From an uncultured Gemmatimonadaceae bacterium (lineage in GTDB: Bacteria > Gemmatimonadota > Gemmatimonadetes > Gemmatimonadales > Gemmatimonadaceae), in contig CAWAGQ010000013.1 in the NCBI GenBank assembly GCA_963781585.1, positions 320,001-384,000 on the forward strand: DNA of 64,000 bases. The letters run 5' to 3'. A program made the translations under genes and the position numbers. Below, piece by piece: positions 6,857 to 22,816 of this stretch. The first letter of the stretch is position 1, and every line of letters begins with the position of its first letter. The notes under the pieces were generated by a model. It was not told where the DNA came from and did not search any database. It saw only the letters and a list, made by a program, of their open reading frames with translations.

Positions 6857-9481
6857 ATGCGCGCGTTCCTGGCCCGATTGCTCGACTGGCTCCGTCGCGA
6901 CCGGATCGACGGCGAATTGCAGGAGGAGCTGACCTTTCATCGCCAGCGGCTGGAGCGCGATGCGCGCGATGCCGGCGTTCCGGAGGGACGCATCGCCGCC
7001 GCGAGCCGGCGTGCGCTGGGCTCCACGACGCGGACTCGCGAGGCCGTCCGGGAGGGCGCCTCGCTCCTCTGGCTCGACCACCTCGCGACGGACGTGCGCA
7101 TCGGCCTGCGGGCCCTGCGCCGGACACCGACGTTCACGGTGGCGGCGCTGGGGACCCTCGCGCTCGGCATCGGCGCAACGACCGTGATCTTCAGTGTCGC
7201 GTGGGCCATCTGGCTGCAACCACTTCCGTATCGCCAGCCCGATCGCCTGGTGTCGCTCGGCGACGCGTTTCGTGGCGGATCTGGCGGGACGATTTCCGTA
7301 CCGGAGGTCGACGACTACGCCCGGACCGGTGTCTTCGATGGCGTGGCGGCCTTTCAGTACGGCGCGACCATCATGAAACCGGGAGATGAACCGGTGCGGG
7401 TCCTCTCCTTCACGGTCTCGCCGAATCTCTTCGACGTGCTCGGCGTTTCTGCCCGGCTCGGTCATACGTTCACCGGTCGCGACACGATCGGCGCCGAGGC
7501 AGAGACGGTCGTGCTGAGCGATCGCCTGTGGCGGCAACGCTTTCATGCCGATACGGCCATCCTGGGACGCTCGATCGAGGCGTTCGGTGGCCTGCTGACC
7601 GTGGTCGGCGTGATGCCTGCCGAGTTTCGCTTTCCCGAGTGGCTGCCAAGCGAGATGTGGGTGCCGCGCAACTTCCGGTCGGAGGGCGGGAATCGCGGCA
7701 CGCGGTTCCTGAATGCGGTGGCCCGCCTCCGCGACGACGCGACACCCGGGCAGGTCCAGGCGGCGATGTCGGGGCTGACCCGTCAGCTCGCCGCGGATCA
7801 TCCTGACGCCAACCGGGACTGGGCCGCCACCGTCTCCCCACTGGTCGAGGGCACCGTGGGCGCCTACCGCGGCGCGTTAGGCTTCCTGCTCGGCACGGTG
7901 GGCCTGTTGTTGCTCATAGCCTGCGCCAATATCGCGAGCCTGCTCCTCGCCCGCACCACCGCGCGACGGAAGGAACTCGCCGTGCGCGTCGCGCTTGGTG
8001 CCGATCGCGCGCGCGTGACGCGTCTCGTCCTCACCGAGAGCACGCTCCTGGCCGTGCTGGGAGGAGGGCTCGGCATCCTGCTCGCCCGTCTGGGCGTTCC
8101 CCTGCTCGGAGCGCTCTTTCCGTCCTCGATCCCGCGCGCGGATCTCGTCGCGGTCAGCGCGCCGGTCATACTCTTCTCCGCACTGCTGTCGCTGGCGACC
8201 GGGATCGTGTGCGGGCTGGCACCGTCGTGGCGCGTCTCCGCGCTTGCGCCCGCTGAGGCGCTGCAGTCGGCGGGGCGCGCGATCATGGGAGCGGGCCGGC
8301 ACGGATTGCAGGAGATGCTCGTCGTGGGCGAGGTCGCCCTTTCGCTCATGCTGCTCGTCGGCGCGGGGATGATGTTGCGAAGCTTCCTCGCGCTCACGGC
8401 GCGGGACCACGGGTTCGCTCCCGCTCACGTGCTGACGATGCACATCACGCTGCCCTTCGACCGCTACGGCGACGCCAACGCCCGCCGGCAGGCGTTCGAG
8501 GATCTTGCGGCGGGGGTCCGCCGAGTGCCGGGTGTGGCGGATGCCGCCGAGGTCACCGGCTATCCGGGAAGCTCGCTCGGCTACCTGGGCGGCGGCCCGA
8601 TCGGCCCCGATCCGGGAGATCCCGCCCGGCAGGTGGTCGTGAGCTACCGCGCAAGCGGGCCGGCGTACTTTCGCACCATGCAGGCGACGCTGCTTGCGGG
8701 TCGCGACTTCGACCAGGGCGATCGCCCGGGATCGCCGAGTGTGGCCATCGTAAACCGGGAGCTCGCGGCACGCCTCTGGCCCGGTGAAGATCCGGTCGGC
8801 AGGACGCTCCGGCTTCCGGCTTCGCTGACGAACTTCCTGCCCTCGTCGTCCGTCGAGGTCGTCGGCGTGGTCGGGGACATGCGCCTCGGCGCGAAGCCCG
8901 CGGCCGACCTGTTCGTGCCGCTCGCACAGGTCCCGATGTTCTGGAGCGACCTGGTCGTGCGCGTTGCCGGCGATCCGGAAACGCACGCGAACGTGGTTCG
9001 GAGTGCGCTGCGTGCGATCGAGCCTGACCTACTCATCGAGGACGTGGCACCCATGCAACGCATCCTGGCGCGGCAGATTGCCCTGCAGCAGGTGCAGAGC
9101 GTCATCGCCGCGGTGCTGGGCGTGCTCGGATGCGTCCTCGCCGATCTCGGTCTCTTCGGATTGCTGTCGTACCTGGTAAACCGGCGGATGCCAGAATTCG
9201 GAGTGCGCATCGCCCTGGGAGCCACGCGGGCGCACATCTTCACCGCGGTACTGCATCGCGGACTGTCGCTCACCGGGGCCGGCATCACGCTCGGTGCCAT
9301 TGGCGCGTTCGGCCTGGTTCACCTGTTGCGCAATCGCCTGTTCGGCCTGCAAACGACCGACGTGCGCGTCTTCGCAGCGGCGGCCTGCTGCATGACAGCC
9401 GCTGCCATTGCCGCCTGCTGGCTCCCGGCCCGTCGTGCCACGCGCGCGCATCCCGTCGCGGCGATGCGCGTGGACGCCTGA
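6857..9481 (+). CDS. ADOP family duplicated ABC permease
   Basis: ELQEELTFH N-terminal prefix, TLALGIGATTVIFS, LLIACANIASLLLAR, PARRATRAHP; RBS GGGAGA. Confidence 0.93.
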   Translation: MRAFLARLLDWLRRDRIDGELQEELTFHRQRLERDARDAGVPEGRIAAASRRALGSTTRTREAVREGASLLWLDHLATDVRIGLRALRRTPTFTVAALGTLALGIGATTVIFSVAWAIWLQPLPYRQPDRLVSLGDAFRGGSGGTISVPEVDDYARTGVFDGVAAFQYGATIMKPGDEPVRVLSFTVSPNLFDVLGVSARLGHTFTGRDTIGAEAETVVLSDRLWRQRFHADTAILGRSIEAFGGLLTVVGVMPAEFRFPEWLPSEMWVPRNFRSEGGNRGTRFLNAVARLRDDATPGQVQAAMSGLTRQLAADHPDANRDWAATVSPLVEGTVGAYRGALGFLLGTVGLLLLIACANIASLLLARTTARRKELAVRVALGADRARVTRLVLTESTLLAVLGGGLGILLARLGVPLLGALFPSSIPRADLVAVSAPVILFSALLSLATGIVCGLAPSWRVSALAPAEALQSAGRAIMGAGRHGLQEMLVVGEVALSLMLLVGAGMMLRSFLALTARDHGFAPAHVLTMHITLPFDRYGDANARRQAFEDLAAGVRRVPGVADAAEVTGYPGSSLGYLGGGPIGPDPGDPARQVVVSYRASGPAYFRTMQATLLAGRDFDQGDRPGSPSVAIVNRELAARLWPGEDPVGRTLRLPASLTNFLPSSSVEVVGVVGDMRLGAKPAADLFVPLAQVPMFWSDLVVRVAGDPETHANVVRSALRAIEPDLLIEDVAPMQRILARQIALQQVQSVIAAVLGVLGCVLADLGLFGLLSYLVNRRMPEFGVRIALGATRAHIFTAVLHRGLSLTGAGITLGAIGAFGLVHLLRNRLFGLQTTDVRVFAAAACCMTAAAIAACWLPARRATRAHPVAAMRVDA

Positions 9482-9543
9482 GGTCGCGGCCGTTGCGCGT
9501 TGATGCCTCACGACGCCGCGGGCGGGCGGGGCTGTCGGGGATA

Positions 9544-11012
9544 GGGGATAGGAAATTCAATCGCGCAGCGCCCGGAAGGTTGCGTCGGCAACTGCGGTGG
9601 GAGAGCCGCGGGTGGGGAACGCCGCGCGCGGAGGGCGCGCCGGACGCGTCCGCGGCGCGTCTGAGACGCGAGCGGGACGGGCGGTGGCGGCGACGCGCGT
9701 CGGGCGTGCCACGGTCGCGCAACCCACGCGTCCCCACGGCACTCAGCCTGAGTCATGGGGGAACGGGCAAACAGGGGTAACGCGTTAGGCGCTTTGACGC
9801 GCGGGGCGTGCCGACGCGCGGCGCGCTGTCGTGCGCGCCGTCGGCGGCGGCCCGCGGGCGGCCTCGCGGGTCCGGCGCATGTGGTCGAGGATCCGGTCGA
9901 TCCCGGCGCGCTGCGTGATGAAGGCGACGATGCGCATCTCGGCGCCGCACTGGGGGCACCGGAGCGGATCGACCTCGAAGAGCTGCCGCAGTAACTCGGC
10001 CCAGCGCCGCCGCGCCTCGCGGAGCGGGAGCGGCACCGCCTCAGCGATCGTCGTCGGTGGCGCGTCCGCGGTCGCCGCGCGCCGGGCACCGCGCACGCGA
10101 TTGGCGTAGTAGCCGTAGTAGCGCGTCATCACCTGGTGCTTGTTCGGCACGTGCGCCAGCACCCGCGCGAGAAACTCCAGCGGATCCACCGTGTCGGTCC
10201 CCGCCGTCGGCCCGTCCGCCTTGTCGGAGCGGTAGCGCACCTGGCGCGCCGGCGCATCGTACTCGAGCCGGTCGAGCGCCACGGGATTGCGCGCGCAATA
10301 CCGCGCCAAGCGCAGCGCGAAGGCCGTGTCGCCATCGGGGACCAGCACCGCATCGTGCACGTGAAAGCCCGAGTGCGGCCAGGCCAGCATCCCCTCGGCA
10401 TCTTCGTGCTCGAACAGCCCGCGCCGCACGAACAGCCGGAGCACGGCGCGACGAAACGCTTCGGTGAGCTGGGCCGTGTCGTGCGCGGGCCATGGCACGA
10501 AGGCGCCATCAGAACGGAAGCCCCCGTCGGTCGCAATCATATGAATGTGCGGATGCCAGTTGGCGAGCGATCCGTGGGTCTGGATGCAGCCCACGATGCC
10601 CACGGCGAGCGTCGGCTCTCGGGTCAGTGCGCGCACGGCGGCGGTCACCGTGCGCGCCGCGACGCGGGCGAGATCGCCCAGGAGCGAGCGGCGGTAGAGA
10701 CACCACGCGCGGAGGCGCTTGGGGATCGTGAGCACCACCTGGCGGTGCGGCACGCCGGGCGCAAGGAGCGAGTCTTCGAGCCACAACGTCCAGAGCGCCA
10801 AGCGCTTGGCGTGACAGCTCGGGCAGAAGTAGCGCGCCTTGCACGAGAAGGCGAGCAGGTACTCGTGCGCGCAGGCGTCGCAGCGCACGCGCGCGAATCC
10901 GTGCTCGAGCACGCCACACGCGAGGAACTTGTCGGCGACTTCGCGCACGACCGGGCGCCAGTCGCCATAGGTCGCGGCGAACCGCTCTTCGTACGCGGCG
11001 TGCATGCCGTTC
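9544..11012 (-). mobile_element. IS91/ISCR-family element, copy 1 (5'-truncated or internally deleted)
   Basis: 9544-11002 appears identical to 13460-14918 (offset 3916); minus-strand end GCGATTGAATTTCCTATCCCC resembles the ISCR/IS91 oriIS. Confidence 0.88.
9785..11005 (-). CDS. IS91 family (Y2/HUH) transposase, N-terminally truncated
   Basis: CDAC...SCKARYFCPSC zinc-binding domain, HPHIH HUH motif, RYCAR, RYYGYYANR; lacks about 33 N-terminal residues of copy 2 and has a new ATG with GGGAGA RBS. Confidence 0.85.
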   Translation of the reverse strand: MHAAYEERFAATYGDWRPVVREVADKFLACGVLEHGFARVRCDACAHEYLLAFSCKARYFCPSCHAKRLALWTLWLEDSLLAPGVPHRQVVLTIPKRLRAWCLYRRSLLGDLARVAARTVTAAVRALTREPTLAVGIVGCIQTHGSLANWHPHIHMIATDGGFRSDGAFVPWPAHDTAQLTEAFRRAVLRLFVRRGLFEHEDAEGMLAWPHSGFHVHDAVLVPDGDTAFALRLARYCARNPVALDRLEYDAPARQVRYRSDKADGPTAGTDTVDPLEFLARVLAHVPNKHQVMTRYYGYYANRVRGARRAATADAPPTTIAEAVPLPLREARRRWAELLRQLFEVDPLRCPQCGAEMRIVAFITQRAGIDRILDHMRRTREAARGPPPTARTTARRASARPARQSA

Positions 11013-11318
11013 TCCCTGAGCGTGCTCTGTCGTCCCGGAGGTTGCCGGTGTGCCCGAGCAGCCCGCAAGGGGCGGCAGGCATGTCCGCGAACCTGCCTCA
11101 GCGCCCGTTCCGGTCATTCGCGGCAGCCGCGCGTCCAGCCGACATAAGCAATCTGGCGTTAACGGTGCGCATTGCCGGATTGCCCTGCGCGGTTCGCCGC
11201 AACATGATGCTGCCAGCGGCGAGCGAGTGAAGGCGACGGGCTCATTCTGCTGGAGAGGGATGCATGCCCGCCCCGTCCATCCTGGCTGCGAATGCTTCGT
11301 CGATCAACGGGAGATATC

Positions 11319-12716
11319 ATGGGCAAGAGACTCCGCTGCATCGTCGCGCTGTCGGCCGGCATGTGCCTCGGCTGCCGGGGCGCGGCCCCGCCTGCGGCCA
11401 GCGTCGCCATTACGCACGTCACCGTGATCGACGCCAGCGGCGCTGCCCCATCCCCGGATGTGACCGTGCTGATCTCGGGCAATCGCATCCAGTCGATCGG
11501 ACACGAAGCGGCGCCTGCAGGCGCCACGGTGGTGGATGGGTCGGGCAAGTATCTGATCCCGGGCCTCTGGGACATGCACATGCACGTTTCACTGCTGCGC
11601 GGACCCGCGATTCTTCCCCTCTTCCTGGCCTGGGGCATTACCGGCGTGCGCGACATGGGCTCGCCGGATTCGATCTTCGTCTGGCGCGACGAGATTGCGG
11701 CCGGCAGACGCGTCGGACCCCGCATCGTGGCTGCCGGCCTGGCGTTCGTGAACCATGCGACCGGTGCGATCACGCCCAGCACCTGGGGTCAGGGGATTAC
11801 CGATGCGGCGGCCGCGCCGCAGGCTGTAGCGCGCGTTGCGGAACACGCCGACTACGTGAAGATCCAGGATTCGTTCATGCGCAGGGACGTGTGGCATGCG
11901 CTCGCCCGCGAGGCCAGGGCACGTCGCATGCCGATTGCCGGCCACGTGCCGTTCGGCCTCGATCTCGAGGAAGCGATCGACAGTGGCCTGACCAGCATCG
12001 AGCACTCGCTCGGCCTCGCGCCCGCCTTCACGAATCGCGAGAGGGATCTGCGCAATCGCGTGCTGGTACAGAAAGACGATGCCCAACGGTACAACGCGCT
12101 GTATGCCGCGGACGCGGAGGCCGTGGCGCACATCGACAGCACGCGCGTCCGCGCGCTGGCTGCGCTCATGGTGCAGCGGGGTGTGGCGCTGGATGCCACG
12201 CTCAAGGATCTGGAATCGGAAGCCTTCGCCGCGTCCGGCCGCTGGAACGACGATCCGCGTCTCGAGGACCTGGCGCCGGACCTCGTGAACGACTGGCGCA
12301 ATCAGGGCGCCCACGATTTCAATGCGACGAGCACCGCGGATCTGCGTGTGACGTTTGCGGCCATGCCGGCACTCGTTGCACGGCTGGAGCACCTCGGCGT
12401 CATGATTCTCGCCGGTACGGATGCGGGCGCGATGTTCGATTTCCCCGCGACCGATCTGCACCGCGAGCTGGAGCTCCTGGTCGAAGGCGGGCTCACGCCC
12501 GTGGAGGCGTTGCGATCGGCCACGCTCGATCCGGCCCGTTACCTGGGACTCGCGGACTCGCTCGGGGTCATCCGCGCCGGCTACGTGGCCGATCTCGTAC
12601 TCCTCGATGCCGATCCCCTGCAGGACATCCACAACACCCGGCGCATCGCTGCGGTCATCCGCAACGGCCACGTGCTGGACCGCGCCGCGTTGGCTGGCAT
12701 GCGCGAGCGCCGGTGA
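11319..12716 (+). CDS. Amidohydrolase family protein (putative lipoprotein)
   Basis: PGLWDMHMH, GITGVRDMG, AGTDAG, ADLVLLDADPLQDI; lipobox-like LGC. Confidence 0.9.
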   Translation: MGKRLRCIVALSAGMCLGCRGAAPPAASVAITHVTVIDASGAAPSPDVTVLISGNRIQSIGHEAAPAGATVVDGSGKYLIPGLWDMHMHVSLLRGPAILPLFLAWGITGVRDMGSPDSIFVWRDEIAAGRRVGPRIVAAGLAFVNHATGAITPSTWGQGITDAAAAPQAVARVAEHADYVKIQDSFMRRDVWHALAREARARRMPIAGHVPFGLDLEEAIDSGLTSIEHSLGLAPAFTNRERDLRNRVLVQKDDAQRYNALYAADAEAVAHIDSTRVRALAALMVQRGVALDATLKDLESEAFAASGRWNDDPRLEDLAPDLVNDWRNQGAHDFNATSTADLRVTFAAMPALVARLEHLGVMILAGTDAGAMFDFPATDLHRELELLVEGGLTPVEALRSATLDPARYLGLADSLGVIRAGYVADLVLLDADPLQDIHNTRRIAAVIRNGHVLDRAALAGMRERR

Positions 12717-12757
12717 TGCCGTGACCGGCAGCCCGCGACGGGTCTAACCGTATACTA

Positions 12758-13459
12758 TCAACGCGCCAGCAGGCGGACGGACAATCCGCCGTTCGAGGTC
12801 GCGAACAGCTCGAGCAGTGCCGGGTCGGGAGGCAGTCGCTCGGGCTGGAGCAGTGCGAGCCGCCATTCGCGCAGGGGTCCGCGCTCCAGCGCGTTCAGCT
12901 CAGCGAGCACGGCGAGGGCCGTGTTGCGCTCGCCCGTGCGCACGCCGTAGGGCGGGTTGGTGACCAGCCAGCCGGGCTCTGCGGGCGCCACGACGGCGGA
13001 AAGCGGTCGCACCGCGAACTCGATGTCATCGAGCACACCGGCGCGCGCGGCATTCTCCTTCGCCGCCCGGATGGCCCCGCCGTTCCGATCGGAGGCGACG
13101 ATACGCGTTCCGCTCCGTTCCCGCACCTGCGCTCTCGCATCGTCCACCACCTGCCGCCAGAGCGCAAGATCGAAGCCCGGCCATTGCGTGAAGGCGAACG
13201 CGCGCGGCTGCCGCTCGGCGCCGGCGATGCCGGGCGCAATGTTGCGGGCCAGCAGCGCGGCCTCGATGGCGATCGTGCCGGAGCCGCAGAGCGGGTCGAG
13301 CAGCGGCGCGCGCGGATCCCACGCCGAGGCCAGCAGCATCGCAGCGGCCAGCGTCTCACGCAGTGGCGCTTTCGCGAGTGCCTGACGGTACCCGCGCCGG
13401 TGCAGCAGCGCGCCCGACGCATCCGCGCGCACGAGGCAGCGGTCGCGCAGGAAGCGGAC
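12758..13459 (-). pseudogene. THUMP/RlmL-like RNA methyltransferase, 3' part only (truncated by the IS91-like element)
   Basis: LLHRRGYRQ...APLRETLAAAML...DPLCGSGTIAIEAA...VTNPPYG; homology starts exactly at the oriIS junction 13459/13460. Confidence 0.88.
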
Positions 13460-15109
13460 GGGGATAGGAAATTCAATCGCGCAGCGCCCGGAAGGTTGCG
13501 TCGGCAACTGCGGTGGGAGAGCCGCGGGTGGGGAACGCCGCGCGCGGAGGGCGCGCCGGACGCGTCCGCGGCGCGTCTGAGACGCGAGCGGGACGGGCGG
13601 TGGCGGCGACGCGCGTCGGGCGTGCCACGGTCGCGCAACCCACGCGTCCCCACGGCACTCAGCCTGAGTCATGGGGGAACGGGCAAACAGGGGTAACGCG
13701 TTAGGCGCTTTGACGCGCGGGGCGTGCCGACGCGCGGCGCGCTGTCGTGCGCGCCGTCGGCGGCGGCCCGCGGGCGGCCTCGCGGGTCCGGCGCATGTGG
13801 TCGAGGATCCGGTCGATCCCGGCGCGCTGCGTGATGAAGGCGACGATGCGCATCTCGGCGCCGCACTGGGGGCACCGGAGCGGATCGACCTCGAAGAGCT
13901 GCCGCAGTAACTCGGCCCAGCGCCGCCGCGCCTCGCGGAGCGGGAGCGGCACCGCCTCAGCGATCGTCGTCGGTGGCGCGTCCGCGGTCGCCGCGCGCCG
14001 GGCACCGCGCACGCGATTGGCGTAGTAGCCGTAGTAGCGCGTCATCACCTGGTGCTTGTTCGGCACGTGCGCCAGCACCCGCGCGAGAAACTCCAGCGGA
14101 TCCACCGTGTCGGTCCCCGCCGTCGGCCCGTCCGCCTTGTCGGAGCGGTAGCGCACCTGGCGCGCCGGCGCATCGTACTCGAGCCGGTCGAGCGCCACGG
14201 GATTGCGCGCGCAATACCGCGCCAAGCGCAGCGCGAAGGCCGTGTCGCCATCGGGGACCAGCACCGCATCGTGCACGTGAAAGCCCGAGTGCGGCCAGGC
14301 CAGCATCCCCTCGGCATCTTCGTGCTCGAACAGCCCGCGCCGCACGAACAGCCGGAGCACGGCGCGACGAAACGCTTCGGTGAGCTGGGCCGTGTCGTGC
14401 GCGGGCCATGGCACGAAGGCGCCATCAGAACGGAAGCCCCCGTCGGTCGCAATCATATGAATGTGCGGATGCCAGTTGGCGAGCGATCCGTGGGTCTGGA
14501 TGCAGCCCACGATGCCCACGGCGAGCGTCGGCTCTCGGGTCAGTGCGCGCACGGCGGCGGTCACCGTGCGCGCCGCGACGCGGGCGAGATCGCCCAGGAG
14601 CGAGCGGCGGTAGAGACACCACGCGCGGAGGCGCTTGGGGATCGTGAGCACCACCTGGCGGTGCGGCACGCCGGGCGCAAGGAGCGAGTCTTCGAGCCAC
14701 AACGTCCAGAGCGCCAAGCGCTTGGCGTGACAGCTCGGGCAGAAGTAGCGCGCCTTGCACGAGAAGGCGAGCAGGTACTCGTGCGCGCAGGCGTCGCAGC
14801 GCACGCGCGCGAATCCGTGCTCGAGCACGCCACACGCGAGGAACTTGTCGGCGACTTCGCGCACGACCGGGCGCCAGTCGCCATAGGTCGCGGCGAACCG
14901 CTCTTCGTACGCGGCGTGAAACGCGCGGAAGTGGTCGCTCACGAGGCGAAACAGCGGCGAGGCCTGCGGGCGGCGCGGCTTGTAAACGCCCGGCGCCACG
15001 CATGCGGGGACCGCGGACATCGCGCACGGCGCTCCGAAGCACGGGAGCGCCGAGCATACGCCCATCGCGGGCGGACGCCGTCACCAGAAGGTCGCGCGCA
15101 GTGCCGTTC
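13460..15109 (-). mobile_element. IS91/ISCR-family element, copy 2 (apparently complete)
   Basis: oriIS-like end at 13460; full transposase; candidate terIS end TGCCGTTC (GAAC on the tnp strand) at 15102-15109; no terminal IRs or target duplication. Confidence 0.85.
13701..15020 (-). CDS. IS91 family transposase (zinc-binding domain + Y2_Tnp)
   Basis: VYKPRRPQASPLFRLV N-terminus, CxxC zinc motifs, HPHIH, catalytic Tyr region, C-terminal CPQCG. Confidence 0.93.
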   Translation of the reverse strand: MSAVPACVAPGVYKPRRPQASPLFRLVSDHFRAFHAAYEERFAATYGDWRPVVREVADKFLACGVLEHGFARVRCDACAHEYLLAFSCKARYFCPSCHAKRLALWTLWLEDSLLAPGVPHRQVVLTIPKRLRAWCLYRRSLLGDLARVAARTVTAAVRALTREPTLAVGIVGCIQTHGSLANWHPHIHMIATDGGFRSDGAFVPWPAHDTAQLTEAFRRAVLRLFVRRGLFEHEDAEGMLAWPHSGFHVHDAVLVPDGDTAFALRLARYCARNPVALDRLEYDAPARQVRYRSDKADGPTAGTDTVDPLEFLARVLAHVPNKHQVMTRYYGYYANRVRGARRAATADAPPTTIAEAVPLPLREARRRWAELLRQLFEVDPLRCPQCGAEMRIVAFITQRAGIDRILDHMRRTREAARGPPPTARTTARRASARPARQSA

Positions 15110-15128
15110 CAGCGCATGTCGCGCCGCG

Positions 15129-15219
15129 GCCTAACGGTGCTTGCTGCTGACGAGCGGCTTGCGGAGACTCGCTGCGCTCGCGATGATGTGACCGCTCGCA
15201 GCAGAAGCTGGCGTTAGGC
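15129..15219 (+). other. Integron attC site 1
   Basis: R'' GCCTAAC ... R' GTTAGGC; arms TT[G]CTGCTG[A]CGAGCGG / CCGCTCGCAGCAGAA pair perfectly apart from two extrahelical bases. Confidence 0.9.
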
Positions 15220-15332
15220 ACACGACTCATCGGCGCGGGTGCGATCCCGAAAGAGTTGACAGGGGAGGCGGCGGCATCGCCTTCCCAACTGTGCCGGACC
15301 GCTATATTACGGTAGTCTCACCGGAGCGCGTC

Positions 15333-15569
15333 ATGACTGCCCCCGCCCGCGTAATCCATAGCGATCCCCAGATCTTGGGCGGCACGCCTGTGTTTGTCGG
15401 TACTCGCGTGCCGGCTCAGTCCCTCTTTGACTACCTTGAGGGGGGCGAGACCCTGGACGAGTTTCTGCGCCAGTTTCCGTCGGTAACCCGGGAGCAGGCC
15501 GTGGCGGCCCTGGACCTGGCGCGTGACACCCTCCTCGCCGCCGTTCCGGCCGGTGCGCATACTCCTTGA
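15333..15569 (+). CDS. DUF433 family antitoxin
   Basis: IHSDPQILGGTPVFVGTRVP...GETLDEFLRQFPSVTREQ. Confidence 0.92.
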   Translation: MTAPARVIHSDPQILGGTPVFVGTRVPAQSLFDYLEGGETLDEFLRQFPSVTREQAVAALDLARDTLLAAVPAGAHTP

Positions 15570-15873
15570 TGAGAACCTGCCCGTCGATTTGGCGAAGGAG
15601 TTGCCTGGCCACACCGTAGATACCGTCCGGGCGTTGGACTGGAGCGGGGTGGCGAACGGCGAGTTACTCCGACGGACCGCGGAGAACCACGAGGTCTTCG
15701 TCACGATGGACCGAAATCTCGAGCACCAGCAGCGGATTCAGGCGTTTCCGTTTGGGATCGTGGTGATCCACGCCGCCTCGAACCAGCTCAAGCACCTCCG
15801 GCCCATGCTCCCAGAGCTGCTCGCGGTCTTCCAGACCGTGCGCCCGGGCGAGCTGGTGCGGGTCGGTGCCTAA
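15553..15873 (+). CDS. DUF5615 family PIN-like toxin
   Basis: VRILLDENLP...WSGVANGELL...FVTMDRNL; overlaps the antitoxin; stop codon lies inside the attC2 R'' box. Confidence 0.9.
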   Translation: MRILLDENLPVDLAKELPGHTVDTVRALDWSGVANGELLRRTAENHEVFVTMDRNLEHQQRIQAFPFGIVVIHAASNQLKHLRPMLPELLAVFQTVRPGELVRVGA

Positions 15874-15962
15874 CAGACAAATGCAGACTGCCGGCGGTTG
15901 CTGCGTAGCGGCTTTGCCGCTCTGATGATAGAAACCGCCGCACTTGATTCGTAGCGTTAGAT
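15868..15962 (+). other. Integron attC site 2
   Basis: GCCTAAC ... GTTAGAT with imperfect arms (CGGCGGTT/AACCGCCG core); GTGCCTAAC complements the cassette start GTTAGGCAC at 15213. Confidence 0.85.
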
Positions 15963-16055
15963 AGCCACACGGCTTCTACGTTATACGGCCAGTTAACTCA
16001 TTGCCTCTCCACTCTGCCTCTCTATAGTACTCGCATGATCTCACCAGGGGATCCA

Positions 16056-16466
16056 ATGAAGGCTCAACGGCTATTGGTATCGCTCACCATCGTCAATTTC
16101 GCGTTGCTGCTGGTCACACTCGCTCACGAGGTTCGTCCGGCGGCAGCGCAGCAGGCGGCGCCAATGCTTCGAGGCCGCGGGCTCGAGATCGTCGATGATC
16201 AGGGCCGCGTGCGGGCGAGCATCACCGTCATGCCGCCGACGAACACGACGGGCGCCGACCGCGGAGCCGAAACCGTGCTCTTGCGGCTGATCACCGAGCG
16301 CGGACGTCCGTCCGTCAAGATCGGCGCATCGGAGCAGGTCGCGGGATTGAGCTTTAACGGTCCCACCGGGACGACCGATACGTACGTCATCCTGCAGTCG
16401 AAGGGGCGCGAAAGCACGCTCACGCTGCGGAACGAGGACGGCAAGGAGCAGATCGTGAAGCCTTGA
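16056..16466 (+). CDS. Hypothetical exported/membrane-anchored protein
   Basis: N-terminal hydrophobic helix; LRGRGLEIVDDQGRVRASI beta-rich body; first gene after attC2. Confidence 0.75.
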   Translation: MKAQRLLVSLTIVNFALLLVTLAHEVRPAAAQQAAPMLRGRGLEIVDDQGRVRASITVMPPTNTTGADRGAETVLLRLITERGRPSVKIGASEQVAGLSFNGPTGTTDTYVILQSKGRESTLTLRNEDGKEQIVKP

Positions 16467-16803
16467 CCGTAGGCGATCCAAGGAATGCCCGGCGCTCGAT
16501 CCACGGCCAAAGCCGCATGGGAACGACGCGCGATTCTTGGGCTCGGCGCTGGCGTACTGAATGTCTTGGGGCAGCGCTTGTCACGAAAGCCGAGCGTACC
16601 CGTCCGCCGCGCGGGTTTGCCGCGCTCTCCCCTAGCCATCACCCTGCTCGGCTGGGCCTGGGCGCACCTCAGGACGCGACCGGCGCGGAACGCTGCGCCG
16701 TGAGCGTGGGACCCGTCGATCGAATGTTCGCGACTCCGCCCGATAGCCCCGGCCAGTGTGAGCCGGGACCATCGGACGACCGACCGCGAGATCCACGTTT
16801 CTG

Positions 16804-17322
16804 TTACTGTCCCGAGCTCTCACCCAGGGCGACGAGAAGCTCGTCCAGCTGATCGAACGTCTCGACCATTGCATCGGCTGCTCCGGTGCCGGCAGCGTCG
16901 AGCGCTTCCTTCGAAGGATAGCTCTCGCGCAGGACCACCAGCGTCTTGCCGCCCTTTTCCTCGAAGGTCACCGTGGTGACAGGCCCGCCCTCGCCACCTT
17001 CTTCATTGGTCCACGCGAGGCGCGAGTACGGCTTCACTTCGACATATGAGCCGAAAAACGCGGCAGGCTCGGGGCCACCGTGGTCGAATACCAATCGGTA
17101 CTTGCCTCCGACACGAGCATCCACCTCGCAGGACAGCAGGGTCATTCCCATCGACTTGGGCACCCACCAACGCTTGAGCAGCTCGGCCCTGGTAAATGCC
17201 TCGAACACGATTCGCGCCGGGCCGTTGATGGTCCGCGTGACAACCACCTCGCGGTCCGACTTCCGTTCCACCGTGGTGCGGTTCTTCACGGGGCCGGGCT
17301 CACTTTCGATTCTTGCGTTCAT
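16804..17322 (-). CDS. SRPBCC/AHSA1 family protein
   Basis: SDREVVVTRTINGPARIVFEAFT...CEVDARVGGKYR...FDQLDELL. Confidence 0.9.
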   Translation of the reverse strand: MNARIESEPGPVKNRTTVERKSDREVVVTRTINGPARIVFEAFTRAELLKRWWVPKSMGMTLLSCEVDARVGGKYRLVFDHGGPEPAAFFGSYVEVKPYSRLAWTNEEGGEGGPVTTVTFEEKGGKTLVVLRESYPSKEALDAAGTGAADAMVETFDQLDELLVALGESSGQ

Positions 17323-17665
17323 CGCTCTTCTCCTTTCGTGTCAGTTCCTCGACAACCTTGTCCAACGCGTCGAAGCGTTCGTCCCAGCGCTGCCGGTACC
17401 TCTCGAGCCACAGCGTCTCTTCCTCCAATCGGCGCGGGCCCAGCTGGCACGTCCGCACGCGCCCGATCTTCTTCGTGGCGACCAGCCCCGCCTGCTCCAG
17501 AACGCCGACGTGCTTCTTCATGCCCGTGAGCGTCATGTGGAACGTCTCGGCAAGGTCCGTGATCGAAGCGTCGGCTCGTCCGAGCTGCTCCAGAACGCCA
17601 CGCCGCGTGGCGTCCGAGAGCGCGGCGAACGAAGTATCAAGTCGGGTCGTCACATACTGAACCAT
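17300..17665 (-). CDS. ArsR/SmtB family transcriptional regulator
   Basis: LDTSFAALSDATRRGVL...KHVGVLEQAGLV...GRVRTC; overlaps the SRPBCC gene. Confidence 0.92.
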   Translation of the reverse strand: MVQYVTTRLDTSFAALSDATRRGVLEQLGRADASITDLAETFHMTLTGMKKHVGVLEQAGLVATKKIGRVRTCQLGPRRLEEETLWLERYRQRWDERFDALDKVVEELTRKEKSDERKNRK

Positions 17666-17679
17666 ATGGTTCAGTATGT
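17652..17679. promoter_or_regulatory. ArsR operator (perfect 28-bp palindrome over the start codon)
   Basis: ACATACTGAACCAT|ATGGTTCAGTATGT. Confidence 0.85.
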
Positions 17680-17820
17680 AACGCAGGCGTTGCGGCATGG
17701 CAAGGGGTGGCCGCGAAAAACGATGCGTCCTACGATCTCCGCAGAGCGCGCGCATCCGTGACCGGTCAGACCACCATCGCTGCCTCTACTGCGACGACGT
17801 CCCCGCCGAACGGCCGCATC

Positions 17821-17940
17821 GTGACGGCCCTCTTTGCCGGCGCCCCGTTTCTCGGTGCGTTCCTGTTTTCGTGCTCGAGCCGATGGTGGCCAAGAGCATC
17901 CTGCCCACGCTCGGCGGCACACCGATGGCGTGGAACACGC
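17821..17940 (+). pseudogene. Fragment of a fused MFS/spermidine-synthase-like gene
   Basis: LFAGAPFLGAFL.. / VLEPMVAKSILPTLGGTPMAWNT split over two frames. Confidence 0.55.
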
Positions 17941-17942
17941 GC

Positions 17943-18102
17943 CTCCGTGGCACTGAGGTCGTGGACCTTGTTGAGGCCGAGGCGGCGCGGGATGACCGGT
18001 TCACGTGGGCGCTCGGCATTTGGATTGTTTCCGAAGGGTTTGCCGCCCGATGTCGTGGAGCGCATTGTCATCGCTGGTGGCAATGCCATTCGGCCAGCTT
18101 AG
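17943..18102 (+). pseudogene. Possible DUF6869-like gene remnant at the 3' end of cassette 2
   Basis: GTEVVDLVEAEAARDDRFTWALGIW followed by frameshifted LPPDVVERI; ends just before attC3. Confidence 0.4.
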
Positions 18103-18131
18103 TCCACGTAAGTCTGAATCTCGTGCTCGCT

Positions 18132-18229
18132 ACCTAACGACGTTGCAGCTGACAAGCGATCTAGTGGTTGCGCGTGGTTTTGCCACGCGCTCTTATTGAC
18201 TCGCTTGCAGCTGAACTTTGGCGTTATGC
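18132..18229 (+). other. Integron attC site 3
   Basis: ACCTAAC ... GTTATGC; arms GTT[G]CAGCTG[A]CAAGCGA / TCGCTTGCAGCTGAAC; terminal hairpin GCGCGTGG/CCACGCGC. Confidence 0.9.
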
Positions 18230-18301
18230 CGACTGTGTACTCTGCGGCAGTCCCCGACGACCTCCAATGTTTGGCGATGTCTCCGTCACCTCCAGTGTGA
18301 G

Positions 18302-19645
18302 ATGAGCCTCTTGATTGGCTTCGTTCTCTCTGCGGTTCTCCTTCTCACCGCCGCCTGCTCGCCCGGAGAGGCGCCCGCTCGGCGGACTGCGATCACCGCG
18401 GCCGCAACAGGTGCCTCTCCCGCCGGCACGGCCAGCCGGACACCGAACCACGTCGCCGTTTCCCTCGTTGAGCCATCGGCGTTTTCCGGGGCCAGCGCTC
18501 GCCGGTACGTCGATCAACTGGCAGGGAGCATCGGTGCGCGGCCCGCCGGGAGCGATCAGGAGCGGACCGCCGCCGCGTATCTGGCCGCGCAATTGACGAA
18601 CTGGGGGTACCACGTCGAGCAGCAGCCCTTCTCGTTCACGACTGTAGTAGACCACTCCGTGCTGCAGGTCCTTACCGGCGGTCCCAGGCAGGTCCCGGCA
18701 TCGCTGATCACCCGCTCCGCTCAAGGAATGGTTCGCGGTCCGCTGGTCGACGGCGGGTTGGGGAATACCCTGACGCTCGGCAGCGTTGGCGGACGCGTGG
18801 CACTCCTGGAGCGCGGCCAATTCACCATCGAGGAAAAAGTCAGCAGCGCGGCTCGCGCGGGTGCAATCGCGGTGCTGATCTTCAACAACAAGCCCGGCAG
18901 GTTCGGCGGGGCGGTGCCGAATCCGTCGACCATACCGGGGCTGACCATCTCACGTGAGGACGGGCTGCGGCTGCGTCAGGCCCTCAGCACTGGCGGCGTC
19001 CAGGTGGAGGTGCGGGCGAGCGCGGAGGTCATCACTCTCCAGAGTCAAAACGTCGTGGCGCAGGCCGGTCGAGAGTGCGCTGTGATCGTCGGCGGACACT
19101 ACGACACATTGGCCGGAGTCGCCGGTGCCAATGACAACGCCTCCGGGACCGGCGTAACGCTGGAAGCAGCGCGGGTCCTGGCTCCCCTGGCCGCCGCGGG
19201 GAAGCTCTGCTTCGTGGCGTTTGGGGCCGAGGAGACAGGCACAAACGGGAGCCAAGCGTTTGTGGCCAAGCTGGATGCCGGCCAGCGCTCGGCGATTCTG
19301 GGGATGATAAACCTCGACATGGTCGGCGTGGGCACGAGCTGGCTCGACGTGGTTGGCTTACGGACGAGCTGGAAAATCTTCGGCGATGCCGGTCTGGCGG
19401 GCATGGCGCGTGACGCCGCGAACCGGGCGAGCGTGCGGACGAGGCTCGACACCACACGGGGTGCAGGGGGAAGCGATCATCTGAGCTTCACCCGCGTGGG
19501 GATCCCTGCCGTGTTCATCCACCTTAACAACGACGCGATGTATCACACGCCACGGGACACGCGGGACCGCGTGGACCCAGCCAACCTGGAGTCGGCGGGA
19601 AGGATCGTCGTGATCCTGGCGCAGAACCTGATGAAGAAACGGTGA
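18302..19645 (+). CDS. M28 family aminopeptidase with PA domain (putative lipoprotein)
   Basis: LTAAC lipobox, ALLERG PA motif, GGHYD, GANDNASG, GAEE, NLDMVG, SDH, YHT. Confidence 0.9.
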   Translation: MSLLIGFVLSAVLLLTAACSPGEAPARRTAITAAATGASPAGTASRTPNHVAVSLVEPSAFSGASARRYVDQLAGSIGARPAGSDQERTAAAYLAAQLTNWGYHVEQQPFSFTTVVDHSVLQVLTGGPRQVPASLITRSAQGMVRGPLVDGGLGNTLTLGSVGGRVALLERGQFTIEEKVSSAARAGAIAVLIFNNKPGRFGGAVPNPSTIPGLTISREDGLRLRQALSTGGVQVEVRASAEVITLQSQNVVAQAGRECAVIVGGHYDTLAGVAGANDNASGTGVTLEAARVLAPLAAAGKLCFVAFGAEETGTNGSQAFVAKLDAGQRSAILGMINLDMVGVGTSWLDVVGLRTSWKIFGDAGLAGMARDAANRASVRTRLDTTRGAGGSDHLSFTRVGIPAVFIHLNNDAMYHTPRDTRDRVDPANLESAGRIVVILAQNLMKKR

Positions 19646-19697
19646 CGAATCACTCGCCGCGAGGGCGCAAGGGGATGAGGCCAGTCTCTTGACGTCA

Positions 19698-19752
19698 TCG
19701 AGGAGTTGTGCACTCCCGACCCGGCCACGCAGCAGAACCCTGATCGTTGGGC
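19698..19752 (+). other. Half attC site (terminal hairpin, L' and R' only)
   Basis: GGAGT/ACTCC hairpin, then CGCAGCAGAA (same as the attC1 right arm) and GTTGGGC; left arm and R'' not recognisable. Confidence 0.65.
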
Positions 19753-19784
19753 TGCACTCGACGCACTGGTGGGCGGCCCGAGCG

Positions 19785-19803
19785 GTGATTACTTTGTAAT
19801 CAC
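19785..19803. promoter_or_regulatory. TA operator palindrome
   Basis: GTGATTAC-TTT-GTAATCAC immediately before RBS GGAGG and the antitoxin start. Confidence 0.8.
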
Positions 19804-19814
19804 GGAGGCTCGCT

Positions 19815-20066
19815 GTGAAGACCCGCATCGTCCGTATCGGTAACTCACAAGGCGTCCGGCTGCCGCGCCCGCTCCTCGAACAGGCCGGCCTCGGCGAGGA
19901 TGTCGTGCTGCGCGCGACGCCGGGGCGCATTGTCATTGAGGCCGCCCGCGAGCCCCGCGCGGGGTGGGATGACGCGGCACGGGCCATGCACGCTGCCGGC
20001 GAGGATGCCCTCCTTGATGCCGCGAACGCGACGCAGTTCGATCGAGACGAGTGGGAGTGGCGGTAA
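19815..20066 (+). CDS. mazE: AbrB/MazE family antitoxin
   Basis: KTRIVRIGNSQGVRLPRPLL...PRAGW...EWEW. Confidence 0.92.
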   Translation: MKTRIVRIGNSQGVRLPRPLLEQAGLGEDVVLRATPGRIVIEAAREPRAGWDDAARAMHAAGEDALLDAANATQFDRDEWEWR

Positions 20067-20386
20067 GTCCGAAGCGGGGGGACGTCGTGTTGGTCCAACT
20101 CGATCCCACGCGGGGCAGGGAGATTCGCAAGACGCGACCATGTGTCGTGATCTCGCCCGACGAATTGAATCGGCATCTGCGCACGGTCATCGTCGCGCCC
20201 ATGACCACGGGCGGCCATACGTACCCGTGGCGCGTCGCCTGCCGGTTTCAGAAACGCGACGGCTTCATTGTCCTCGATCAAGTCCGGACCGTTGATCGCG
20301 AGCGCCTGGTGCGCAAGCTCGGGCGCCTCGCCCCACCGGCGGTCGCTGCAACCCTGGCCCTACTCCACGAATTGTTCACCCCCTAG
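20051..20386 (+). CDS. mazF: PemK/MazF family toxin
   Basis: RGDVVLVQLDPTRGREIRKTRPCVVISPDELN...DQVRTVDRERL. Confidence 0.93.
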   Translation: MGVAVSPKRGDVVLVQLDPTRGREIRKTRPCVVISPDELNRHLRTVIVAPMTTGGHTYPWRVACRFQKRDGFIVLDQVRTVDRERLVRKLGRLAPPAVAATLALLHELFTP

Positions 20387-20402
20387 TCCGCGCACCCGTG
20401 CA

Positions 20403-20496
20403 GTCCAACATTGCTTGCAGTTGGCAGCCGATCAGTGGGATGCGCGCTATGCTCGCGCGCGTTTGATTCGGCTGCAGTTGAAGCTGGGCGTTAGGC
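20403..20496 (+). other. Integron attC site 4
   Basis: GTCCAAC ... GTTAGGC; arms TT[G]CAGTTG[G]CAGCCGA / TCGGCTGCAGTTGAA; GTGCAGTCCAAC complements the cassette start GTTGGGCTGCAC at 19746 (11/12). Confidence 0.88.
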
Positions 20497-20532
20497 CGCC
20501 TGACATCCTGTTGCCTTGCGAAGGAGGTTCTC

Positions 20533-21129
20533 GTGCGAATCGACCCGAGCCACGCCGCTATGACCGAATCTGAAGTGAACCGGCGGGACTTCGTCTTTGG
20601 TGCGGCGAGTGCCGCGGTGAGCGCCTGGCTGGCCACACACGGCGCCGAGTTGCACGCCACGGCAGCCTACGCTGCATCCGCCACCTCTCAGCAACCGTAC
20701 GAGTTCTTCACTGCCGATGAGGCGCGCGAGTTCGACGCGATCAGCGCGCAAATCGTGCCAACGGACGACACGCCGGGCGCGCGCGAGGCACACGTGGTCC
20801 GCTTTCTCGACCACTACCTGGCCACTGTCTTCTCGAACGGCCAGTCCGACTTCCGGAAAAGCTTGACGCAGCTCAGCGACGCGGTCGCGGCCAGCGGGGC
20901 GGGACACCGCTCATTCGCGACGTTGAGCGACGCTGACCAGATCGCGCTCCTCCTCAACTTCGAAAAGAGCAATCGGGCGTCGTTCAATGTGTTTCGGGGG
21001 GCCACTATGACCGGCATGTTTTCGGACCCGGTGCACGGCGGCAATTTCAGGAAGGTGGGCTGGAAGCTGAACGGATACGAGGACCGCTACTCCTGGACCC
21101 CACCCTTCGGGTACTACGACCGTGTCTGA
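20533..21129 (+). CDS. Gluconate 2-dehydrogenase subunit 3 family protein (Tat signal)
   Basis: NRRDF twin-arginine motif, IVPTDDTPGA, FSDPVHGGN...GWKL; RBS AAGGAGG. Confidence 0.9.
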   Translation: MRIDPSHAAMTESEVNRRDFVFGAASAAVSAWLATHGAELHATAAYAASATSQQPYEFFTADEAREFDAISAQIVPTDDTPGAREAHVVRFLDHYLATVFSNGQSDFRKSLTQLSDAVAASGAGHRSFATLSDADQIALLLNFEKSNRASFNVFRGATMTGMFSDPVHGGNFRKVGWKLNGYEDRYSWTPPFGYYDRV

Positions 21130-22795
21130 TCAGACACGCGGCGACGCCGCGGCGGCCTTGCCGCCCATGAAGACCTATCGGCCAAGCGACGAGGTGGATT
21201 TCGTCATCGTCGGCTCCGGTGCGGCCGGCGGCGTCATGGCCCATGAGCTCGCCCGATCCGGCTTTTCCGTCGTCGTGCTCGAGCAGGGCCCCTGGCTCAC
21301 CGAGAAGGATTTCAGCCACGACAGCGACTATGTTCCCCCCGAGAAGCAGCTCAGCTACCGCCCGCCGACGACCCGCCGGGCCAACGAGGGCGAGAAGGCC
21401 GAGCTGGGCAATCACATCGACTACGGACGTCTCGTCGGCGGCGGTACGGTCCACTTCACCGCCAACTACTGGCGCCAACCGGAGATCGAGTTCGAGCAGG
21501 CGACACGACTCGGCGTCCCTGACGGCTCGAGCGTTGCCGATTGGCCGATCAGCTACCGGGAGCTCGAGCCGTACTACACCAGGGTCGAGTGGGAAATTGG
21601 AGTCTCCGGCAAGGCTGGAAACCCCTTTGAACCGTGGCGAAGCAAGGGATACCCCCTTCCGCCGCTCCCGATCAAGTCAGAAGGCGTGCTGTGCGAGCGC
21701 GGCGCGAAGAAGCTCGGCTGGCACGCCTGGCCGGCGCCAATGGCGATCCTCTCGCGTCCGTATCGCGGTCGTTCAGCCTGCGTGGCGTGTGGCATGTGCG
21801 CGGGTTACGGCTGCGAGGTGCGGGCCAAGTCGAGCACACTGGTGGCGATGATTCCCGGCGCCGTGGCCACCAAGCGGTGCGAGATCAGGCCCAACAGCTA
21901 TGTCCGCAAGGTCGAGTCGGGATCGAACGGCCGGGTTACCGGCGTCACCTATTTCGACGCGAGAAGGCGGGAAATCTTCCAGCGCGCGAAAGCGGTCGTG
22001 CTGTCGGCCAACGGCGTCGAAACGCCCAGGTTGCTGCTGCTCTCCGCGAGCGGTGCCTCTCCGGCCGGGCTCGCCAACTCGAGTGGGCAGGTCGGACGCA
22101 ATCTGATGAACAATCCGGGGACCGGCTCGGTCGCCCTGTTCGAGCATGAGGTCAACAGCTGGAAGGGCGTCAACACCTCCCGCGTGGTCTGGGATTTCTT
22201 CGAGACCCCAAGGGCACTGGGTCTTTACGGTGGCGGCGGGATCGACATGCGAAAAGCCAGCAGCGGGAGAAGCGGCGGTGGCTGGCCCGGCGAGCCAACC
22301 TGGGGACGCGAGTGGAAACGACGGGCACGGGCTTACGCCTGTAACAGGGCAGCGACCAACTCCCATCAATCGATGCTTCCGGTGGTGAGCAATCGGGTTG
22401 ACCTCGATCCGGAGGCGAAGGACGCCTGGGGACTTCCGGTGCCGCGCATTACTTCCACCGATCACCCGCTGGACGTCAAGCTGAAGCAGTTCTTCGCCGA
22501 TCGCGCGCGCGACCTGTTGGAAGCGGCTGGTCCGGAACAGATCTCCGATCCCCAGGTCGCGCGTCCCGCAGGAGGTGGTGGTGAGCATCTGCTCGGCACC
22601 TGCCGGATGGGCAACGATCCCGGGACTTCGGTCATCAACGCGGACCACCGCGCACACGACGTGCCCAACCTCTTCCTGGTCGACGGGAGCAGCTTCGTTA
22701 CCTCGGGTCGCGGTCAGCCGACGATGACCATCCAGGCGCTCGCGTTCCGCGCTTCGGATCGCATCGTCCATTTGGCGAGGACACGCGGCATCTAG
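21122..22795 (+). CDS. GMC family oxidoreductase
   Basis: VGSGAAGG, VGGGT, CxxCGxC, HLLGTCRMG, PTMTIQALA. Confidence 0.93.
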   Translation: MSDQTRGDAAAALPPMKTYRPSDEVDFVIVGSGAAGGVMAHELARSGFSVVVLEQGPWLTEKDFSHDSDYVPPEKQLSYRPPTTRRANEGEKAELGNHIDYGRLVGGGTVHFTANYWRQPEIEFEQATRLGVPDGSSVADWPISYRELEPYYTRVEWEIGVSGKAGNPFEPWRSKGYPLPPLPIKSEGVLCERGAKKLGWHAWPAPMAILSRPYRGRSACVACGMCAGYGCEVRAKSSTLVAMIPGAVATKRCEIRPNSYVRKVESGSNGRVTGVTYFDARRREIFQRAKAVVLSANGVETPRLLLLSASGASPAGLANSSGQVGRNLMNNPGTGSVALFEHEVNSWKGVNTSRVVWDFFETPRALGLYGGGGIDMRKASSGRSGGGWPGEPTWGREWKRRARAYACNRAATNSHQSMLPVVSNRVDLDPEAKDAWGLPVPRITSTDHPLDVKLKQFFADRARDLLEAAGPEQISDPQVARPAGGGGEHLLGTCRMGNDPGTSVINADHRAHDVPNLFLVDGSSFVTSGRGQPTMTIQALAFRASDRIVHLARTRGI

Positions 22796-22816
22796 CACAC
22801 TCTTCGCGATCAAGAT

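Follow-up and report, generated by a model that had tools for sequence, protein, structure and literature searches.

An insertion sequence (IS) of the IS91 family was found to carry an integron recombination site as one of its own parts. The sequence analysed, hereafter the window, is a stretch of 64,000 nucleotides from an uncultured Gemmatimonadaceae bacterium (assembly GCA_963781585.1, contig CAWAGQ010000013.1, positions 320,001 to 384,000). Contigs of this genome are cited below with the letter C, the window being C13:320001-384000, and surveyed loci with the letter L. The window contains a complete copy of the element (copy B) with its oriIS end downstream of the transposase gene (tnp) and an attC site (attC1) at its terIS side, upstream of tnp. 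The element belongs to a Gemmatimonadales-centred IS91 lineage with an ISCR-like oriIS, in which the terIS side has an integral, conserved attC in the orientation opposite to tnp. This attC is inherited together with the element, and the conservation breaks off at the GTT of the R′ core. In the window, this ISCR-like lineage with its built-in attC heads an attC cluster without an integron integrase (CALIN). On balance, the element seems to deliver a portable attC by transposition, on which the integron integrase (IntI) of the host, acting in trans, would build an integrase-less array.

Is the attC a regular part of the element? Relatives of the transposase were collected from 67 genome-contig loci, mostly of Gemmatimonadales metagenome-assembled genomes (MAGs), and from 80 metagenome-contig loci, giving 147 loci. 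The N-terminus of the transposase is present in 95 of them, and 86 of these 95 have at least 170 nt upstream. A covariance-model match with E <= 0.1 lying 55-100 nt before the transposase start was counted as an attC in this position. Such a site was found in 23 of the 86 loci, mostly 59-67 nt away, and its strand is opposite to that of tnp in all 23; the rest of the same 621,184 bases gave 22 attC matches in a tally of the hit tables. Thus, the association with attC that an earlier reading of the letters alone (the sequence-only reading) had pointed to in the window is above chance in the relatives, with a fixed distance and orientation. A single stem (GGCCTAAC-GaTGCTTGCTGCTGaCGAGCGGaCC ... 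GGTCCGCTCGCAGCAGAAGCtGGCGTTAGGC) is common to all 24 element-adjacent attCs, with a variable loop. The left arm of this stem type occurs 27 times in the loci and never on the strand of tnp. The attCs of the window, L017, L029, L035, and L046 are 92-96% identical to one another, the DNA identity of these loci to the window being 75-86%.

The end of the element was then delimited with a profile of the end region, which was trained on 18 carriers (these match by construction) and which matched 71 loci. In 26 loci the homology extends as far as R′, and in 16 it stops within the attC (four of which are cut by the contig end); in eight loci it stops at R″, in 10 loci 8-15 nt before R″, and in 11 loci earlier. 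It thus reaches R′ or the attC interior in 42 of the 71 ends. In copies that have no attC, the homology stops in R″ or just before it. The sequence-only reading had placed the end of the element about 19 bp before attC1; this was too short, since the family homology extends to R″, and many relatives show it across the entire attC. The same reading had left room for a misassembly near 15110. The junction recurs in independent assemblies, and contigs of two soil runs from different studies repeat the sequence from tnp through the attC to 15217, followed by unrelated sequence, so it is no assembly artefact (the public runs, with holders' shares of at most 0.19, were examined as contigs).

A DNA search of the genome revealed a second, decayed junction at C13:314471-314743, 20 kb upstream of the attC1 junction. 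Here, about 170 nt of the tnp-upstream leader (about 70% identity) runs directly into an attC with 83% identity to attC1. The 20-nt left stem arm, allowing up to three changes, occurs twice in the 5.7-Mb genome, in attC1 and at the decayed IS end (C13:314646), and the IS leader is present at each. None of the 17 other attC matches of the genome has the attC1 stem type.

In a transposase tree of 26 rows, carriers take the basal positions of one well-supported clade, and the attC of its derived members is degenerate or missing. One more carrier belongs to a second clade, while a third clade and three distant relatives have no attC. No attC match was found in the distant relatives L059, L063, and L066 (39-41% identity). 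The tree suggests that the attC is ancestral; most simply, it was acquired long ago, was retained under constraint for a long time, and decayed repeatedly. A Mantel test of attC divergence against tnp divergence in 24 carriers gave an r of 0.17, with 52 of 2000 permutations as high, which is too weak to establish co-divergence.

What lies beyond the conserved unit? Homology between carriers halts at the GTT of R′, and the DNA beyond it differs. Of 25 sites, 21 have GCCTAAC as R″. Behind the GTT of R′, the next four bases are the complementary AGGC in only seven of the 25, and 16 different tetramers were seen; the first base is a purine in all 25, and the tetramers still fit RRRY. Integron integrases place the crossover between the G and the TT of R′. 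Thus, the varied RRRY is the pattern that an attC x attC or attC x attI exchange at G|TT would leave, and it is unlike junctions to random target DNA. Of the 12 carriers with 1.5 kb or more on the R′ side, six have further attCs on it. In L040, the order is the R′ of a preceding attC, 15 nt ending in GTTCA, the oriIS, the element, its own attC, and the next cassette, so that one cassette slot is filled.

From these observations, the following course may be proposed. The Y2-HUH transposase would move the unit by rolling-circle transposition from oriIS. The persisting unit would stop at the GTT of R′, and a ready-made attC would arrive wherever the unit lands. IntI encoded on C7 would act in trans, cassettes being recombined into this attC by attC x attC exchange at G|TT. 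The integrase-less array would then grow away from the element, as attC1 and the five cassettes after it may have done in the window. Both the use of the element-borne attC by an integrase and the construction of the array on attC1 are what I infer from the junctions. The wider proposition takes the IS91-type lineage with its integral attC as a vehicle of portable attCs, with arrays made by IntI in trans, a circle that is formally a cassette, and a hairpin that perhaps serves as a terminator as well. Taken as a whole, it is tentative and leans towards the doubtful.

The source of IntI is at hand in this genome. The integron-integrase model has 16 matches in the genome, none of them in the window, in agreement with the sequence-only reading, which had noticed no tyrosine recombinase there. 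The sole true IntI is at C7:185885-186829 (434.5 bits against a cut-off of 265; a 349-aa open frame without a stop). The tyrosine-recombinase gene nearest to the window, at C13:309021-309851, lies 10 kb before its start and belongs to another IS. No intI was found within the 2.5-3 kb flanks of the relatives; L117 and L055 hold only fragments of the recombinase of the other IS type of this genome (described below). With four attC sites within 5.4 kb, no integrase in the window, and so no intI beside the array as in a complete integron, the array is a CALIN, which settles the choice between CALIN and complete integron that the sequence-only reading had left.

Several points weigh against delivery of a portable attC. 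No full attC was detected by the model in 63 of the 86 relatives; therefore, the attC is dispensable for persistence or is often lost. Several recent copies exist in some attC-less lineages (L019, L021, L027). Six of the 12 carriers mentioned above have no second attC within 1.6-2.7 kb. Four of the 25 R′ variants (GAGG...) are due to an IS1182-family element abutting R′, not to cassette exchange. The counts of the survey are of non-independent events, as many loci come from related MAGs and metagenomes of the same campaigns. Among the assembled contigs, and in contigs only, neither a circle junction nor an empty site was found. A methyltransferase gene is interrupted at copy B (see below), and its first 156 residues were not found in the 93.5%-complete assembly; the history of the locus is not reconstructable. 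A synteny search of 30 relatives with the passenger and the post-array genes gave only paralogue-like pieces of 65-78% identity and no empty site, the relatives being too distant.

The main alternative, which is compatible with the preferred explanation, is that the attC-like hairpin is the terIS of the element itself. The transposase would recognise the hairpin on the displaced strand and cut at the GTT; no integron would be involved, and the likeness to attC would be convergent or due to an ancient capture. HUH enzymes commonly act beside hairpins. The IS91 model has the transposase attached to the 5′ end at oriIS, the displaced strand running from oriIS at its 5′ end to terIS at its 3′ end. 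Lying at this 3′ end, the top-strand hairpin may be the terminator. Consistent with this, conservation is higher in the stems than in the leader that separates attC from tnp (mean identity of 62%), the conserved unit stops at the GTT, GTTC-like words occur at some oriIS flanks (L040, L061, L027), and the attC1 hairpin folds at -32.8 kcal/mol on the displaced top strand versus -27.6 kcal/mol on the bottom strand. However, the bases after the GTT fit RRRY without an exception at the first purine, which is not expected of random target DNA. Half of the carriers, and the window too, have real cassette arrays next to the element. The ends of the hairpin-less copies cluster tightly at R″ or shortly before it, suggesting a separate terminus. 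A terminator with no integron behind it is thus unlikely, although it deserves the most attention among the alternatives.

The sequence-only reading had proposed that the HUH transposase reads through terIS, mobilises the entire array, and supplies single-stranded attC substrates. The first attC at least travels with the element, and the arrangement of copy A, passenger, and copy B shows that foreign DNA is carried. Read-through of terIS by IS91 and ISCR elements is described in passages of PMC7923331 and PMC12772301. On the other hand, no cassette past the first R′ is common to the window and any of the 147 loci, the homology stopping at 15219-15224. No two carriers share DNA past the first R′ either, except two like soil contigs, whose homology to the window ends at 15217. 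The strand would also be the wrong one. The oriIS lies 3′ of tnp; therefore, the displaced strand is the tnp antisense strand, i.e., the + strand of the window, which carries the attC top strands (by the IS91 model and the orientation found in 23 of 23 loci). For integron integrases, the substrate is the bottom strand of attC in its folded form. Read-through would thus not supply the integrase substrate, since the displaced strand is the attC top strand. Later shuffling of cassettes by IntI could have erased shared cassettes, so the proposal is weakened, and I consider it improbable.

The other suggestion of the sequence-only reading, that the element lands preferentially beside resident attC hairpins, is about equally improbable. 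It has a precedent in this genome, where a recombinase-bearing IS91-type element, present in three identical copies, inserts exactly at the R″ of three attCs. In the family of the copy-B transposase, at least four attC loop variants occur at the same junction. However, the adjacent attCs share an element-specific stem that is missing from the other attCs of this genome and that is conserved across genomes more strongly than tnp. The oriIS flanks are ordinary, with neither an orphan R″ nor a cassette end except in L040. The spacing from leader to R″ varies by a few nucleotides, as expected from descent with small indels. Finally, it is very improbable that the element is a passive passenger, with IS and attC forming an ordinary gene cassette shuffled by integron integrases alone (a status that a passage of PMC12772301 suggests for ISCR28, and with which the L040 unit, occupying exactly one cassette slot, would agree), because attCs were found on the oriIS side in only two of the 13 carriers with at least 1.5 kb there, the copy-B oriIS flank in the window is a broken methylase gene, and the oriIS ends are intact with varied flanks, as after transposition.

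The identity of the transposase supports the assignment of the element. The copy-B protein matches Pfam Zn_Tnp_IS91 (E 2.1e-19, profile positions 5-90 of 90) and Y2_Tnp (E 4.8e-27, positions 1-179 of 183), and the motifs HPHIH and YYGYY are visible in its translation; both Pfam domains were also found in the copy-A transposase. With the NCBIfam IS91-family equivalog, the copy-B protein scores 177.2 bits, above the cut-off of 125. Together with the shared oriIS end, these matches bear out the earlier description of a complete IS91/ISCR-like element with oriIS downstream of tnp. In contrast, the ISCR clade Ia model gave 145.2 bits against a cut-off of 925. The copy-B element would work like an ISCR, yet it is outside ISCR clade Ia. 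Relatives with 62-90% identity to the transposase come from Gemmatimonadales MAGs and from soil or lake metagenomes, whereas no plasmid-borne relative exceeds 37% identity, and for ISPps1 the value is about 30%.

Copies A and B are 100% identical over 1459 nt (9544-11002 and 13460-14918) and diverge on either side. Both begin on the + strand at GGGGATAGGAAATTCAA, so the start at 9544 given by the sequence-only reading is exact. The shared oriIS boundary is about 240 nt downstream of the transposase stop codon. The motif GGATAGGAA(A/T)TTCAAT is kept at the oriIS end of the relatives, and the DNA outside it is unrelated. IS91-family elements use GTTC/CTTG as target and termination tetranucleotides. 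The words flanking oriIS here are GGAC for copy B, GATA for copy A, GTTC-like in the three loci named above, and others elsewhere; the exact first base of the element is not fixable. No terminal inverted repeat of the element was found among the listed repeat pairs, and no target duplication was seen. A promoter scan of 13300-15400 found none, although the consensus may not fit the host phylum. Premature termination, or a circle that recombined, would be expected to leave a truncation on the terIS side like that of copy A.

The two copies enclose 2.46 kb of passenger DNA, and the whole is presumably a sandwich of the kind typical of ISCR elements. The methyltransferase gene in the passenger is interrupted exactly at the oriIS end of copy B, and the fragment from 13459 aligns to residues 157-385 of a paralogue on C9. 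The sandwich could have arisen when a rolling-circle product from oriIS ended within the methylase gene at another place and then recombined with a resident copy. The 5′ half of the methylase would be absent because the product ended inside the gene. The original insertion would then have lain between the permease gene ending at 9481 and the dehydrogenase genes starting at 20533, which border the locus. The permease (6857-9481) is an ordinary protein of 874 aa with a duplicated MacB_PCD/FtsX and without an adjacent ATPase gene, which I take to be an "orphan permease" of a type common in Acidobacteriota and Gemmatimonadota.

The ends of the element in the relatives have several further features. 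The first 17-90 nt of the oriIS end are tandemly repeated in four loci (L027:4257-4294, L021:4497-4587, L025:4376-5273, and L069:4591-4608); these repeats are possibly footprints of re-initiation or of abortive rolling-circle events. In L092:1526-2190, L093, and L145:1230-2436, the neighbour directly at the terIS boundary is an IS481-family element with repeats of the word CATAGGTAACAC at its end. This was seen in two transposase lineages, at the place where the attC would begin. In L135, at about 2300-2430 upstream of tnp, the attC stem that should come after an R″ of GGCTAAC is replaced by GCATGAC, repeated about 13 times in tandem. The IS1182-family element mentioned above (DDE_Tnp_1_6 and DUF772, 527 aa) abuts the GTT of R′ at L172:2099-3913 (C2:241099-242913), and also in L098, L143, L161, L099/L131, and perhaps L119, with the recurring junction GTT|GAGGYTGTAG. 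It is possibly another IS that targets attC at the crossover point.

The coordinates of the locus are collected in the following table.

Table 1. Features of the locus in window coordinates, with the strand of each.
Feature	Position	Strand	Remarks
IS copy A	9544-11002	-	oriIS end present, terIS side truncated; 100% identical to 13460-14918
Transposase ORF of copy A	9785-11068	-	first 47 codons absent
Passenger between copies A and B	11003-13459		2.46 kb
Amidohydrolase gene	11292-12716	+	Pfam Amidohydro_1
RlmK/L-like methyltransferase gene, 3′ part	12758-13459	-	UPF0020 match
IS copy B, complete	13460 to ~15128	-	direct repeat of copy A
oriIS end region of copy B	13460-13700	-	tnp-strand end ...ATTGAATTTCCTATCCCC; start common to both copies
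Transposase gene of copy B	13701-15065	-	454 aa, Y2 HUH, IS91 family; in-frame ATG at 15020 may be the true start
Conserved terIS-side leader	15066-15128	-	between transposase start and R″; aligned in relatives
attC1, element-borne	15129-15219	+	R″ GCCTAAC; stem TGCTTGCTGCTGACGAGCGG...CCGCTCGCAGCAGAAGC; R′ GTTAGGC; 97.4 bits
Cassette 1	15220-15962	+	DUF433 gene and PIN-like (DUF5615) gene (15291-15569, 15523-15873), attC2; Pfam
attC2	15869-15962	+	72.7 bits
Long cassette or fused cassettes	15963-18229	+	ends in attC3; no attC in between
Hypothetical gene	16035-16466	+	in the long or fused cassette
AHSA1/SRPBCC gene	16804-17322	-	in the long or fused cassette; Pfam
ArsR-type helix-turn-helix gene	17300-17755	-	in the long or fused cassette; Pfam
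attC3	18133-18229	+	83.5 bits
M28 peptidase cassette	18230-19752	+	PA domain, gene to 19645; degenerate attC at end; Pfam
Right-half attC (L′+R′), degenerate	~19725-19752	+	sequence GCAGCAGAACCCTGATCGTTGGGC
MazEF cassette	19753-20496	+	MazE 19815-20066, MazF/PemK 20051-20386, then attC4; Pfam
attC4, last attC of the array	20403-20496	+	95.6 bits

The four attCs of the window align from R″-L″ to L′-R′ with 57-68% identity, and eight of the 24 predicted pairs have compensatory changes. Their R″/R′ cores are GCCTAAC/GTTAGGC, GCCTAAC/GTTAGAT, ACCTAAC/GTTATGC, and GTCCAAC/GTTAGGC, which fit RYYYAAC/GTTRRRY in inverse orientation. In the bottom-strand fold of attC1, the R stem is accompanied by an asymmetric internal loop, and the ″ arm has two single-base bulges. 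A covariance model made from the four attCs and run with filters off on 9000-26000 recovered these four at 72.7-97.4 bits; attC1 read on its reverse strand comes next with 18.3 bits, and all others in that range are at most 12.4 bits. A broader covariance model (21 attCs) found the same four sites only in the entire 64-kb window. These models, with the L′+R′ site, uphold the earlier count of four attCs and a half site on the tnp-upstream side. The left half that would match the half site at ~19725-19752 was not found. An initial scan of the genome by strict pattern and hairpin gave 198 attC candidates, mostly chance palindromes, and was replaced by the covariance models.

The cassettes have ordinary contents, with two toxin-antitoxin pairs, one peptidase, an SRPBCC protein and its regulator, and one unknown. 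A palindrome of 18+18 nt without a spacer (17648-17683; 94% complementary) lies within or just upstream of the reversed ArsR-type gene and is likely an operator.

Elsewhere in the genome, a complete integron lies at C7:164959-186829 (L015, L016). It has intI and at least seven attCs on the same strand as intI, and the array runs in the intI direction. Small attC clusters were found at C7:418193-420641 and C13:309989-314743, and single attCs on C2, C4, C6, C11, and C13:14814. The other IS91-family element of this genome has three 99.9-100% identical copies (L014:7514-10089, i.e., C13:307514-310089; C7:172170-174744; and C7:182856-185352) and encodes a 301-aa tyrosine recombinase and a 389-aa transposase. 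The recombinase resembles an integron integrase without the extra domain (201 bits against the cut-off of 265). Each copy is placed exactly at an attC's R″. Its oriIS side has an orphan G(T/C)CTAAC, and its own end ...GAGTTCAAC replaces R″ before the rest of the attC and so supplies a new R″. Two copies share the entire downstream attC to GTTAGGC, and one copy lies between the true intI and the array.

Integrase-less attC clusters are common in bacterial genomes, and their origin is unsettled. A transposon with a functional attC would offer a route, namely transposition followed by recruitment of cassettes in trans. If this is true, every transposition plants a recombination site, which would be a concrete mechanism for the origin of such clusters. 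The circular intermediate would be a circle with one attC, so that integrons could capture and spread the transposon itself. Should the hairpin also serve as the terminator, it would be read by two unrelated single-strand DNA recombinases. HUH rolling-circle transposition would be joined to integron recombination, both of which act on single-stranded hairpin DNA. Such a link differs from the association of ISCR1 with class 1 integrons and from elements that merely insert into attC.

How does the element compare with known systems? It resembles the IS91/ISCR elements (IS91, IS801, IS1294, ISPps1; ISCR1-28) in having a single Y2-HUH transposase with a zinc-binding N-terminal domain and an oriIS of the ...TTCCTATCC... 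type downstream of tnp, which I take to resemble the published ISCR oriIS sequences. As in that group, 5′-truncated copies keep oriIS, and neither inverted repeats nor target duplications are seen. It differs from them in having a conserved attC at the terIS side. In the literature searched, with subscription journals and ISfinder/TnPedia outside the search, no named member turned up with such an attC described, nor any analysis that treats an attC as belonging to an IS91/ISCR element. Mobile elements tied to attC in a fixed orientation include the IS1111-attC group and the group IIC-attC introns, which insert into resident attCs. In such attC-targeting elements, the resident attCs differ from copy to copy, whereas the element here brings its own attC. 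Both groups are mentioned in PMC9229058. The recombinase-bearing IS91 element of this genome is also distinct, its transposase being 28.6% identical to that of copy B; copy B has no recombinase, and its oriIS flanks are ordinary.

The sandwich of copy, passenger, and truncated copy resembles ISCR28-armA-deltaISCR28, a structure of like architecture presented in PMC5620268. As far as the accessible parts of the sources go, ISCR28 beside sul4 and ISShvi3 in a Shewanella integron appear in passing remarks, without analysis of sequence, end, orientation, or attC conservation. Those on ISCR28 beside sul4 suggest that a like arrangement may exist in clinical resistance contexts. Finally, the array resembles other CALINs in having four attCs and a half site with cassettes, no integrase in the window, and an intI elsewhere in the genome. 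It differs from them in that the cluster begins with the attC of a transposable element, which suggests one route by which CALINs could originate.

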